Shown: positions 33,908 to 39,359, counted from the stretch's first letter. The stretch is 64,000 nt of DNA from Escherichia coli (GCF_002854065.1 NZ_CP024147.1), one strand, 5' to 3'. Notes: generated by a model from the sequence alone, not told the origin. Numbers and translations are program-made.

Positions 33908-34906
<999 letters not shown>

Positions 34907-35097
34907 TTTCTTGCGTTATTTTCGGCACCTTTTATGTAGCGAAGGTGCCGGAATATATTCTCTTTTGTTACTTATTTGTATACCGTGCACAATATTTTTA
35001 TCCCTCATATTTATAGGGTAAATTACCTGTAAAGTAGTGTCTAATTACCCGCCTCGCAAATTCCAGTTTTCAAATATCTATTTCAGGTCAAAAGATT

Positions 35098-35105
35098 GAA
35101 TTATT
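35098..35105. repeat. Left copy of the 8-bp IS1 target-site duplication (gaattatt)
   Basis: Identical 8-mer immediately flanks both IS1 ends. Confidence 0.8.
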
Positions 35106-35160
35106 GGTGATGCTGCCAACTTACTGATTTAGTGTATGATGGTGTTTTTGAGGTGCTCCA

Positions 35161-35436
35161 GTGGCTTCTGTTTCTATCAGCTGTCCCTCCTGTTCAGCTA
35201 CTGACGGGGTGGTGCGTAACGGCAAAAGCACTGCCGGACATCAGCGCTATCTCTGCTCTCACTGCCGTAAAACATGGCAACTGCAGTTCACTTACACCGC
35301 TTCTCAACCCGGTACGCACCAGAAAATCATTGATATGGCCATGAATGGCGTTGGATGCCGGGCAACCGCCCGCATTATGGGCGTTGGCCTCAACACGATT
35401 TTCCGCCATTTAAAAAACTCAGGCCGCAGTCGGTAA
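35161..35436 (+). CDS. insA: IS1 InsA (91 aa)
   Basis: [43 protein letters not shown]... matches IS1 InsA. Confidence 0.95.
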
Positions 35437-35858
35437 CCTCGCGCATACAGCCGGGCAGTGACGTCATCGTCTGCGCGGAAATGGACGAACAGTGGGGATA
35501 CGTCGGGGCTAAATCGCGCCAGCGCTGGCTGTTTTACGCGTATGACAGGCTCCGGAAGACGGTTGTTGCGCACGTATTCGGTGAACGCACTATGGCGACG
35601 CTGGGGCGTCTTATGAGCCTGCTGTCACCCTTTGACGTGGTGATATGGATGACGGATGGCTGGCCGCTGTATGAATCCCGCCTGAAGGGAAAGCTGCACG
35701 TAATCAGCAAGCGATATACGCAGCGAATTGAGCGGCATAACCTGAATCTGAGGCAGCACCTGGCACGGCTGGGACGGAAGTCGCTGTCGTTCTCAAAATC
35801 GGTGGAGCTGCATGACAAAGTCATCGGGCATTATCTGAACATAAAACACTATCAATAA
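35355..35858 (+). CDS. insB: IS1 InsB frame; transposase InsAB' is made by -1 frameshift at the A-run near 35410-35420
   Basis: ORF matches IS1 InsB; A6C slippery motif ttaaaaaactc present. Confidence 0.9.
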
Positions 35859-35873
35859 GTTGGAGTCATTACC

Positions 35874-35881
35874 GAATTATT
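35874..35881. repeat. Right copy of the 8-bp IS1 target-site duplication (gaattatt)
   Basis: Identical to 35098-35105. Confidence 0.8.
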
Positions 35882-36000
35882 CACTGGAGACGATTCGTAA
35901 ATTCGCTGGATTTTTGACTAAAGTTTCTTTAGGATTTGTCTCATCGTATGATTAATTACACCAATCGTTCAACGTCTTGCTGATAAGTGATGGCGATTAT

Positions 36001-36141
36001 ATGAGGTTAGCAATGCCTTCTGGAAATCAGGAACCCCGCCGCGATCCTGAATTAAAACGTAAAGCCTGGCTGGCGGTTTTTCTTGGTTCTGCACTTTTCT
36101 GGGTGGTTGTCGCACTGCTGATTTGGAAAGTGTGGGGATAA
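36001..36141 (+). CDS. ymiA: Small single-TM protein (46 aa), YmiA-like
   Basis: ORF MRLAMPSGNQEPRRDPELKRKAWLAVFLGSALFWVVVALLIWKVWG (not in the supplied ORF track, below its length cutoff); a possible alternative start at 36013; position fits the remembered K-12 ymiA. Confidence 0.45.
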   Translation: MRLAMPSGNQEPRRDPELKRKAWLAVFLGSALFWVVVALLIWKVWG

Positions 36142-36143
36142 CT

Positions 36144-36311
36144 ATGGTTGGTCAGGAGCAACTGGAGTCGTCACCATTATGCCAGGATAGTGACAATGAA
36201 CCAGAAACGAAACGGGAATGTTCCGTCGTTATTCCAGACGACTGGCAACTAACATCGCAGCAGCAAGCCTTTATAGAACTGTTTGCTGAAGATGATCAGC
36301 CGAAACAATAA
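36144..36311 (+). CDS. yciX: Small acidic protein (55 aa), YciX-like
   Basis: Internal ATG 36144 of ORF 36123..36311 with GGGGA 6 nt upstream; position fits the remembered K-12 yciX. Confidence 0.4.
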   Translation: MVGQEQLESSPLCQDSDNEPETKRECSVVIPDDWQLTSQQQAFIELFAEDDQPKQ

Positions 36312-36683
36312 TTATCATCATTCTTATTACCCATTTTTAATGAATTACAGGGCTTTTAATACACCGCAGCAATAACAGGTTGAGTTATCTCAACACAAAG
36401 TAATAACCGTTAAGGGTGTAGCCTATGATCAACACAAATATGAAATATTGGTCCTGGATGGGCGCGTTTTCTCTGTCGATGCTCTTCTGGGCCGAACTCA
36501 TCTGGATCATTACTCACTGATCCCTGACCCCGTTGCGGCGGGGTTTTCATTTGCTTTGCCACAAGCTTTCTCCTCTTTTATCAATTTGGGTTGTTATCAA
36601 ATCGTTACACGATGTTTGTGTTATCTTTAATATTCACCCTGAAGAGAATCAGGGCTTCGCAACCCTGTCATTAAGGAGGAGCT

Positions 36684-39359
36684 ATGTCGTCAACCCTACG
36701 AGAAGCCAGTAAGGACACGTTGCAGGCCAAAGATAAAACTTACCACTACTACAGCCTGCCGCTTGCTGCCAAATCACTGGGCGATATCACCCGTCTACCC
36801 AAGTCACTCAAAGTTTTGCTCGAAAACCTGCTGCGCTGGCAGGATGGTAACTCGGTTACCGAAGAGGATATCCACGCGCTGGCGGAATGGCTGAAAAATG
36901 CCCATGCTGACCGTGAAATTGCCTACCGCCCGGCAAGGGTGCTGATGCAGGACTTTACCGGCGTACCTGCCGTTGTTGATCTCGCTGCAATGCGCGAAGC
37001 GGTTAAACGCCTCGGCGGCGATACTGCAAAGGTTAACCCGCTCTCACCGGTCGACCTGGTCATTGACCACTCGGTGACCGTCGATCGTTTTGGTGATGAT
37101 GAGGCATTTGAAGAAAACGTACGCCTGGAAATGGAGCGCAACCACGAACGTTATGTGTTCCTGAAATGGGGAAAGCAAGCGTTCAGTCGGTTTAGCGTCG
37201 TGCCGCCAGGCACAGGCATTTGCCATCAGGTTAACCTCGAATATCTCGGCAAAGCAGTGTGGAGCGAATTGCAGGACGGTGAATGGATTGCTTATCCGGA
37301 TACACTCGTTGGTACTGACTCGCACACCACTATGATCAACGGCCTTGGCGTGCTGGGGTGGGGCGTGGGTGGCATCGAAGCAGAAGCCGCAATGTTAGGC
37401 CAGCCGGTTTCCATGCTTATCCCGGACGTAGTGGGCTTTAAACTTACCGGAAAATTACGTGAAGGTATTACCGCCACAGACCTGGTTCTCACTGTTACCC
37501 AAATGCTGCGCAAACATGGCGTGGTGGGGAAATTCGTTGAATTTTATGGTGATGGTCTGGATTCACTACCGTTGGCGGATCGCGCCACCATTGCCAATAT
37601 GTCGCCAGAATATGGTGCCACCTGTGGCTTCTTCCCAATCGATGCTGTAACCCTCGATTACATGCGTTTAAGCGGGCGCAGCGAAGATCAGGTCGAGTTG
37701 GTCGAAAAATATGCCAAAGCGCAGGGCATGTGGCGTAACCCGGGCGATGAACCGATTTTTACCAGTACGTTAGAACTGGATATGAATGACGTTGAAGCGA
37801 GCCTGGCAGGGCCTAAACGCCCACAGGATCGCGTTGCACTGCCCGATGTACCAAAAGCATTTGCCGCCAGTAACGAACTGGAAGTGAATGCCACGCATAA
37901 AGATCGCCAGCCGGTCGATTATGTTATGAACGGACATCAGTATCAGTTACCTGATGGCGCTGTGGTCATTGCTGCGATAACCTCGTGCACCAACACCTCT
38001 AACCCAAGTGTGCTGATGGCCGCAGGCTTGCTGGCGAAAAAAGCCGTAACTCTTGGCCTCAAGCGGCAACCGTGGGTCAAAGCGTCGCTGGCACCGGGTT
38101 CGAAAGTCGTTTCTGATTATCTGGCAAAAGCGAAACTGACACCGTATCTCGACGAACTGGGGTTTAACCTTGTGGGATACGGTTGTACCACCTGTATTGG
38201 TAACTCTGGGCCGCTGCCCGATCCTATCGAAACGGCAATCAAAAAAGGCGATTTAACCGTCGGTGCAGTGCTGTCCGGCAACCGTAACTTTGAAGGCCGT
38301 ATCCATCCGCTGGTTAAAACTAACTGGCTGGCCTCGCCGCCGCTGGTGGTTGCCTATGCGCTGGCGGGAAATATGAATATCAACCTGGCTTCTGAGCCTA
38401 TTGGTCATGATCGTAAAGGCGATCCGGTTTATCTGAAAGATATCTGGCCATCGGCACAAGAAATTGCCCGTGCGGTAGAACAAGTCTCCACAGAAATGTT
38501 CCGCAAAGAGTACGCAGAAGTCTTTGAAGGCACTGCAGAGTGGAAAGAAATTAACGTCGCACGATCCGATACCTACGGATGGCAGGAGGATTCAACCTAT
38601 ATTCGTTTATCGCCTTTCTTTGATGAAATGCAGGCAACACCAGCACCTGTGGAAGATATTCACGGTGCGCGGATCCTCGCAATGCTGGGGGATTCAGTCA
38701 CCACTGACCATATCTCTCCGGCGGGCGGTATTAAGCCCGACAGCCCAGCGGGTCGATACCTACAAGGTCGGGGTGTTGAGCGAAAAGACTTTAACTCCTA
38801 CGGTTCGCGGCGTGGTAACCATGAAGTGATGATGCGCGGCACCTTCGCCAATATTCGCATCCGTAATGAAATGGTGCCTGGCGTTGAAGGGGGGATGACG
38901 CGGCATTTACCTGACAGCGACGTAGTCTCTATTTATGATGCTGCGATGCGCTATAAGCAGGAACAAACGCCGCTGGCGGTGATTGCCGGGAAAGAGTATG
39001 GATCAGGCTCAAGCCGTGACTGGGCGGCAAAAGGTCCGCGTCTGCTTGGAATTCGTGTGGTGATTGCCGAATCGTTTGAACGAATTCACCGTTCGAATTT
39101 AATTGGCATGGGCATCCTGCCGCTGGAATTTCCGCAAGGCGTAACGCGTAAAACGTTAGGGCTAACCGGGGAGGAGAAGATTGATATTGGCGATCTGCAA
39201 AATCTACAACCCGGCGCGACGGTTCCGGTGACGCTTACGCGCGCGGATGGTAGCCAGGAAGTCGTACCCTGCCGTTGTCGTATCGACACCGCGACGGAGT
39301 TGACCTACTACCAGAACGACGGCATTTTGCATTATGTCATTCGTAATATGTTGAAGTAA
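36684..39359 (+). CDS. acnA: Aconitate hydratase A (891 aa)
   Basis: Full ORF; RBS AAGGAGGA; Fe-S cluster Cys ligands; aconitase family. Confidence 0.97.

Follow-up and report, generated by a model that had tools for sequence, protein, structure and literature searches.

IS1 is the archetypal bacterial insertion sequence, and one further insertion of it therefore matters little in itself. Its target duplications are given as '8 bp or 9 bp', and of the copies resident in the Escherichia coli K-12 chromosome, IS1A and IS1E alone are reported to move with any regularity; IS1B, IS1C and IS1D hardly do so except when transposase is in excess, and the substitution L81F has been suggested as a possible cause (PMC12428005, PMC12903888). 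Insertions of IS1 and IS5 in the AT-rich, H-NS-silenced promoter region upstream of the bgl operon are under selection and have been shown to activate it (PMC12903888, PMC9678765), and in other IS families H-NS is known to mediate the capture of transposons into AT-rich DNA (PMC11335895). The locus that we describe here, the spacer between cysB and ymiA, resembles the bgl region in that IS1 occupies an AT-rich regulatory spacer at multiple positions and in both orientations, but differs in that its insertions are known to us from sequence alone.

In the 64,000-nucleotide stretch of E. coli DNA that was analysed (referred to here as the window), the spacer is interrupted by a 768-bp element, which we attribute with near certainty to the simple transposition of one intact IS1 of the IS1B/IS1C type into AT-rich chromosomal DNA. 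The element extends from 35106 to 35873 on the + strand and shares its direction of transcription with cysB and ymiA. An IS1-end pattern and an inverted-repeat search both located its terminal repeats, IRL (GGTGATGCTGCCAACTTACTGAT; 23 bp, 35106-35128, + strand) and IRR (GGTAATGACTCCAACTTATTGAT as read on the minus strand; 23 bp, 35851-35873), which pair as an inverted repeat of 23 nt with 78% complementarity; on the plus strand the right end reads ...ATCAATAAGTTGGAGTCATTACC, with its last base at 35873. Both repeats matched the degenerate end pattern with 0 mismatches, and the 64-kb window contains 2 such matches where 0 would be expected by chance. As the window contains a single IS1, there is no second copy with which a composite element could be built.

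The coding content is also complete. The insA gene (35161-35436, + strand, with a GTG start) specifies a 91-residue DNA-binding protein with a zinc ribbon and an HTH domain (PF03811 and PF12759), and the insB' frame (35355-35858, + strand, 167 aa from the first ATG) specifies the DDE catalytic part of InsAB' (PF03400). At the junction between them lies the A6C motif for programmed -1 frameshifting (AAAAAAC, 35412-35418, + strand), and translation through this motif yields an InsAB' protein of 232 aa with no stop. The protein matches the Pfam profiles Zn_ribbon_InsA (PF03811; 73.9 bits), HTH_Tnp_IS1 (PF12759; 96.6 bits) and DDE_Tnp_IS1 (PF03400; 260.7 bits, residues 102-232), as well as the NCBIfam model for IS1 family transposases, NF033558 (243.8 bits; cut-off 100). 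A consensus scan found a promoter-like site, CTGCCA-16-TATGAT (35113-35140, + strand), inside or next to IRL, which is presumably where the promoter of IS1 itself is located. By its length, ends, reading frames, domains and duplication, the feature belongs to the IS1 family and is IS1 proper. The sequence-only reading had proposed a complete 768-bp IS1 with both terminal repeats, insA, insB' and the A6C motif, and all of these were found in the sequence and by profile matches.

The element is bordered on each side by the 8-mer GAATTATT, whose left copy (35098-35105) and right copy (35874-35881) directly abut IS1. Because GAATTATT is common in a genome as AT-rich as this one (it occurs 4 times in the 64-kb window, against 2.7 expected), a match at both flanks is by itself weak evidence, and it is the empty site that decides. 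Alignment with K-12 MG1655, the check proposed along with the original claim of an 8-bp duplication, gave an empty site of ...AAAGATTGAATTATTCACTGGAG... in which GAATTATT occurs once, as had been predicted; the MG1655 locus at the insertion point is also given as ...CAGGTCAAAAGATTGAATTATTCACTGGAGACG..., again with a single copy of the 8-mer. Removal of 776 bp from the window (IS1 and one repeat) reconstructs an empty site that is 100% identical over 200 bp to an O157:H7 genome, and of 5,426 complete E. coli genomes, 4,997 have this 200-bp site without interruption. Since the uninterrupted sites carry GAATTATT once, as a single ancestral copy, the duplication is confirmed as genuine and exactly 8 bp long. 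A T stands before the left copy and the terminal G of the IS after it, and the right copy has the terminal C of the IS before it and a C after it; the bases bordering the repeat thus differ on both sides, which excludes a duplication of 9 bp. The boundaries of the element also agree base for base with the ends of K-12 IS1A, IS1B, IS1C and IS1D at 768 bp.

The same insertion is present in one public genome. Strain CUWW06 (wastewater, Thailand; NZ_CP182139.1) matched our 1.8-kb locus query over its full length at 99.9% and has an identical IS1 at the same junction, where it is annotated, so that this insertion is already known. At least 40 matches to IS1 are present in the CUWW06 genome. Among the matches listed from 5,426 complete genomes, CUWW06 was the only one in which the 200-bp junction query was spanned by a single piece, and a further carrier with at least two mismatches (the 99.0% identity level) is possible beyond those matches. 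The window differs from CUWW06 by 15 mismatches over 62.7 kb and by one 1,336-bp insertion that is present in the window only; the flanks are ~99.98% identical across 64 kb, and divergence does not rise around IS1. This near-identity indicates that the source of the window is a close relative of CUWW06 and that the insertion is older than their split, and the presence of the identical element and junction in this one public complete genome, among the matches listed, points to a recent, lineage-specific event. Together with the extra IS2 at 52101-53431, the IS1 insertion distinguishes the lineage and could serve as a strain marker.

We compared the element with the resident IS1 copies of K-12. 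It is identical at 767 of 768 positions to IS1B and to IS1C, at 765 to IS1D and at 760 to IS1A, and at all 768 to the copy at the same site in CUWW06, the protein of which is named by NCBI 'IS1-like element IS1B family transposase'. With one difference from IS1B and IS1C, three from IS1D and eight from IS1A, it is an IS1B/IS1C isoform (the 'type II' IS1 of K-12) as judged by nucleotide identity. It shares with K-12 IS1B and IS1C (NC_000913.3, 279163-279930 and 290634-291401) the length of 768 bp, the terminal repeats and the layout of insA, A6C and insB'. The single difference from these two copies is at IS nucleotide 704, where the window has T and K-12 has A, so that residue 217 of InsAB' is Leu in the window and Gln in the K-12 copies; furthermore, the K-12 copies lack target duplications, whereas that of the window is clean. 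Compared with IS1D, residue 193 is His in the window and Tyr in K-12. IS1A and IS1E (the 'consensus' IS1, close to IS1R of plasmid R100) are of the same family and have the same length, ends and gene layout; two of the eight nucleotide differences from IS1A alter InsAB', with F81 and R130 in the window and L81 and S130 in IS1A. The InsAB' of the window thus combines F81 and R130, which are of the IS1B/D type, with H193 and L217, and has neither the Q217 of IS1B and IS1C nor the Y193 of IS1D.

The clean duplication and the lineage-specific occurrence indicate that this copy moved recently, with which the near-immobility of K-12 copies of the IS1B/C type sits awkwardly. Together with its intact ends and reading frames, these features are indirect signs that the element may be able to transpose. 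As a counterpoint, the window copy does not have the Q217 of IS1B and IS1C, and IS1 transposase can act in trans. Chen, Hsu and Hwang (1998) reportedly identified His-193 and Leu-217 as governing the transposability of IS1. If so, the window copy would be an IS1B/D backbone that keeps both 'active' residues, which would fit its recent mobility. By the same comparison of residues, the element may represent an active progenitor of the poorly mobile IS1B/C and IS1D copies of K-12. It offers a natural example of a recently mobile IS1B-type element with Leu217 and His193, to be set beside the K-12 copies with Gln217 or Tyr193 that are reported to be nearly immobile.

The window's insertion is one of many in this region. 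A BLAST search with junction queries showed that 398 of the 5,426 genomes carry IS1 no more than ~600 bp from the left flank and oriented as in the window, and that 32 carry it in the opposite orientation; as the 200-bp queries join pieces up to 600 bp apart, both figures count IS1 within ~600 bp and not at the exact junction. The 200-bp core of the spacer is interrupted in 424 genomes, and overall the cysB-acnA spacer of ~8% of complete genomes contains an IS1. We mapped 22 IS1-bearing loci to the K-12 empty site and obtained 17 combinations of site and orientation with intact duplications, in addition to three rearranged cases. Five of the 17 duplications are of 8 bp and 12 are of 9 bp, independently of the IS1 variant, which bears out the earlier view that 8 bp is the less frequent class for IS1. 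The recurrently hit region, at 35101-36468 in the window and 2025-2616 in the K-12 locus (L001), takes in the cysB-ymiA and yciX-ymiC spacers.

Denoting the window's orientation by + and the opposite one by −, the targets duplicated over 8 bp are GAATTATT (+, the insertion in this window), GGATTTTT (−), CAATCGTT (+) and GATTTTTG, which has been used in both orientations (+ and −). Those duplicated over 9 bp are AGATTGAAT (+), CACTGGAGA (−), GGAGACGAT (−), GTCTCATCG (+), CAATCGTTC (−), CATTCTTAT (+), TTTTTAATG (−) and CAATAACAG (+), together with CAGCAAGCC within yciX (+), GGGCGCGTT within ymiC (+) and TAGGATTTG, again in both orientations (+ and −). A 95-bp part of the cysB-ymiA spacer holds twelve of the intact events, six of either orientation. 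Given this even split of events, the 12-fold excess of one orientation at the level of genomes reflects clonal spread and not a preference for orientation; the spread is chiefly that of the GATTTTTG + and CAATCGTT + insertions. Strains EC-129 and B18271, for example, carry an IS1 at the GATTTTTG site, and the insertion at CAATCGTT occurs in EC20 and in numerous further isolates from humans, of which one is named ST361. The same targets have been reused by different IS1 variants in opposite orientations: one IS1 at GATTTTTG, for instance, is IS1A-like, and another differs from the window and K-12 copies at ~35-40 positions. Most of the other IS1 copies in the spacer are IS1A-like, with 0-3 differences from IS1A. 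These insertions share with that of the window the IS family, the 600-bp region, the 8- or 9-bp duplications and, in several cases, the orientation. Their targets differ, however, the first being 4 bp before the site used in the window and the last ~590 bp after it; the IS1 variants are mostly different, some lie within yciX or ymiC or at a much shorter distance from ymiA, and some are accompanied by adjacent deletions (HS and NT1F25).

Three cases (HS, NT1F25 and ST540) lack duplications as a result of adjacent deletions or rearrangement. In E. coli HS (NZ_CP092639.1; positions 1035-1802 of its locus, L011) the IS1 without a duplication adjoins a 262-bp deletion that takes out ymiA with its promoter region and also the beginning of yciX, and in NT1F25 (positions 1012-1779 of L019) it adjoins a deletion of 37 bp; both deletions are as expected for IS1-mediated adjacent deletions. 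At the GATTTTTG site of strain 10 (NZ_CP048330.1; positions 1042-1074 of L006) a 33-bp copy of the IS1 left end directly precedes a complete IS1, and this 801-bp structure, either a remnant or a tandem duplication of the end, has the same span in three further genomes. Five of the genomes fetched (B18271, 22F46, EC20, 23CRST022 and ST540; loci L003, L013, L014, L015 and L025), several of them unrelated, have ymiA annotated as a frameshifted pseudogene and also carry IS1 nearby. This suggests that in parts of the species ymiA is only weakly constrained, and such relaxed constraint may contribute to the recurrent insertion of IS1.

For comparison we searched two nearby AT-rich spacers, both of 37% GC, in one orientation only and with genome counts that, like those above, are not corrected for phylogeny: the ychE-oppA spacer had IS1 in 56 genomes, the 12 listed all being K-12 laboratory derivatives with the insertion at one position, and the osmB-yciT spacer had it in 4 genomes, at one position among the matches listed. 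The cysB-acnA spacer is thus likely to be an IS1 hot region, with an excess that looks real. IS1 prefers AT-rich DNA, and the 32-37% GC of the cysB-ymiA spacer fits this preference. An IHF site as the cause of targeting found no support, as the K-12 locus has a single match to WATCAANNNNTTR, which lies close to acnA at a distance of ~700 bp. A broader proposal is that the cysB-ymiA and yciX-ymiC spacers together form a species-wide capture site for IS1, receiving several IS1 types at the same 8- or 9-bp targets in both orientations beyond what AT-richness provides, with local DNA structure or H-NS-type occupancy of a PhoP-controlled promoter region as the cause and natural variation in the low-magnesium operon ymiA-yciX-ymiC as the result; we offer this tentatively, giving it somewhat less than even weight. 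Lying upstream of a small-protein operon regulated by PhoQP, the spacer could be a compact natural system in which to study the choice of targets by IS1.

On its left, the element lies 199 bp beyond the stop codon of cysB (33932-34906; NF009326, 641 bits), the intrinsic terminator of which (34920-34953, + strand; a 13-pair stem followed by a T-rich tail) is intact 145 bp upstream of IS1. As this terminator is unchanged relative to K-12, cysB should be unaffected. On its right, 127 bp separate the end of IS1 from the ATG of ymiA (36001-36141, + strand), an intact gene for a small membrane protein of 46 aa that is the first of the ymiA-yciX-ymiC operon. The location between cysB and a small ymiA-like frame given in the sequence-only reading thus stands, with ymiA identified by NF000536 (96.8 bits) and by the gene annotation of K-12 and CUWW06. 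Further downstream are yciX (36144-36311), ymiC (36425-36520; NF041484) and acnA (36684-39359). The promoters of acnA reportedly lie ~407 and 50 bp upstream of that gene (Cunningham, Gruer and Guest, 1997), positions that would place them at least 400 bp downstream of IS1.

In reporter assays, the ymiA-yciX-ymiC operon is induced by low Mg2+ in a PhoQ-dependent manner through the region upstream of ymiA, and overproduction of YmiA delays growth while deletion of ymiA has no phenotype (PMC11429745). The IS1 of the window lies within this regulatory region and leaves the 127 bp next to ymiA untouched, and ymiA is the gene most exposed to the insertion. Because the element is inside the upstream region through which PhoQP-dependent induction occurs, it could displace upstream regulatory DNA of ymiA or add read-through from IS1, and the effect on transcription suggested in the sequence-only reading is to that extent a possibility. 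A scan for σ70 promoters predicted none between IS1 and ymiA and no hybrid or outward promoter at the junction of the IS1 right end with its flank, the only promoter-like site of IS1 being that at its left end. In a search for a PhoP box upstream of ymiA, matches at three mismatches or fewer were at chance level (16 against 12.5 expected). By eye, an imperfect direct repeat, AGTTTC-N5-GATTTG (35921-35937), can be seen 9 bp upstream of a TATGAT (35947-35952), and with 4 mismatches to the PhoP-box consensus it is a lead only. If this TATGAT is taken as a candidate promoter, IS1 would end ~48 bp upstream and leave the core intact. A literature search for IS1 together with ymiA returned nothing relevant. 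No known small RNA is disrupted by IS1, the only Rfam match being to STnc180, an enterobacterial sRNA, ~480 bp downstream of the element (36352-36554, + strand; 201.8 bits against a gathering score of 50). That match covers the ymiC frame and ends at a terminator-like hairpin (36526-36545), so one stretch is listed under two headings, as an sRNA and as a gene for a small protein.

The simple transposition of one IS1 would account for these observations as follows. According to established IS1 biology, InsAB' transposase would be made by -1 ribosomal frameshifting at A6C, would bind both 23-bp terminal repeats and would join the element to a target cut with an 8-base stagger, after which repair of the two single-stranded gaps would copy GAATTATT on each side. 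Taken together with the census, the element would have landed in an AT-rich spacer that tolerates insertions and takes IS1 repeatedly. The flanks are collinear with the uninterrupted locus, and the terminator of cysB, ymiA, yciX, ymiC, the STnc180 region and acnA are all left intact; to judge from this arrangement, the insertion is probably neutral or nearly so. It is in kind an already known, textbook IS1 simple insertion, of which an 8-bp duplication is a documented minority outcome.

Alternative histories of the junction can be weighed against this account. One might suppose, given that 9 bp is the commoner length for IS1 and was found in 12 of the 17 events sampled in the spacer, that the duplication was originally of 9 bp and has had one base lost or changed, or that the boundary of the IS has been placed one base off. 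Either reading requires an extra single-base deletion exactly at the junction, whereas the ends of the element are those of K-12 IS1A, IS1B, IS1C and IS1D at 768 bp, the excision of exactly 768 + 8 bp restores a sequence 100% identical to that of another genome, and four other 8-bp duplications, made by different IS1 variants, are found in the same spacer; together with the flanking bases, the K-12 ends and the restored empty site effectively refute a 9-bp duplication or a shifted boundary, and the probability that we would still assign to it is negligible. It is also very unlikely that IS1 did not transpose in this lineage and instead came with a chromosomal segment recombined from a carrier strain. 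E. coli does recombine frequently, and as the insertion is common to CUWW06, the event predates the split from that strain; but the junction was found in no other complete genome among the matches listed, so no donor lineage is visible, and the ~99.98% identity of the flanks to CUWW06 over 64 kb shows no abrupt change near IS1. Even if such a transfer had taken place, the same 8-bp transposition event would have happened in the donor.

A different kind of explanation is that IS1 upstream of ymiA has been selected for altered expression of ymiA-yciX-ymiC, YmiA being toxic when overproduced, or of acnA. Selection would explain why so many lineages carry an IS1 there (~8% of genomes, against the 56 and 4 genomes for the two control spacers), and it would be in keeping with the growth delay on YmiA overexpression and the lack of a phenotype on deletion (PMC11429745), and with several insertions in other strains that lie ~30-70 bp from the ymiA start. 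The events show no orientation bias, however, at six against six in the cysB-ymiA spacer, which speaks against selection for read-through or for an outward promoter, and no hybrid promoter is predicted at the junction of IS1 with its flank. Positions are scattered over ~95 bp and continue into the yciX-ymiC spacer, the frameshifts in ymiA in five fetched genomes and its deletion in HS look like relaxed constraint and not positive selection, and the window's own insertion was seen in one of 5,426 complete genomes among the matches listed. We therefore consider an adaptive origin improbable, if less so than either of the alternatives above, and retain simple transposition into a permissive spacer.

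The window also contains a second insertion sequence, a complete IS2 of 1,331 bp (52101-53431) with ends TAGACTGGCCCCCTGAATCTCC... and ...GGGGCAAATCCA, flanked by the 5-bp target duplication AATAT (52096-52100 and 53432-53436). Transposase is encoded on the + strand in two overlapping frames (52147-52557 and 52515-53420). The element is located between fabI and the gene for a TetR/AcrR regulator, which is followed by an RND efflux operon; it reads towards that operon and is absent from the near-identical CUWW06 and from the other top matches. Two differences in genes separate the window from CUWW06 as well. At 34887 the window has the common CysB sequence (...KDIKLPEK), where CUWW06 has Leu in place of Ile, and the gene for the RND periplasmic adaptor (54420-55541) encodes an intact protein of 373 aa in the window, whereas its CUWW06 counterpart carries an annotated internal stop.
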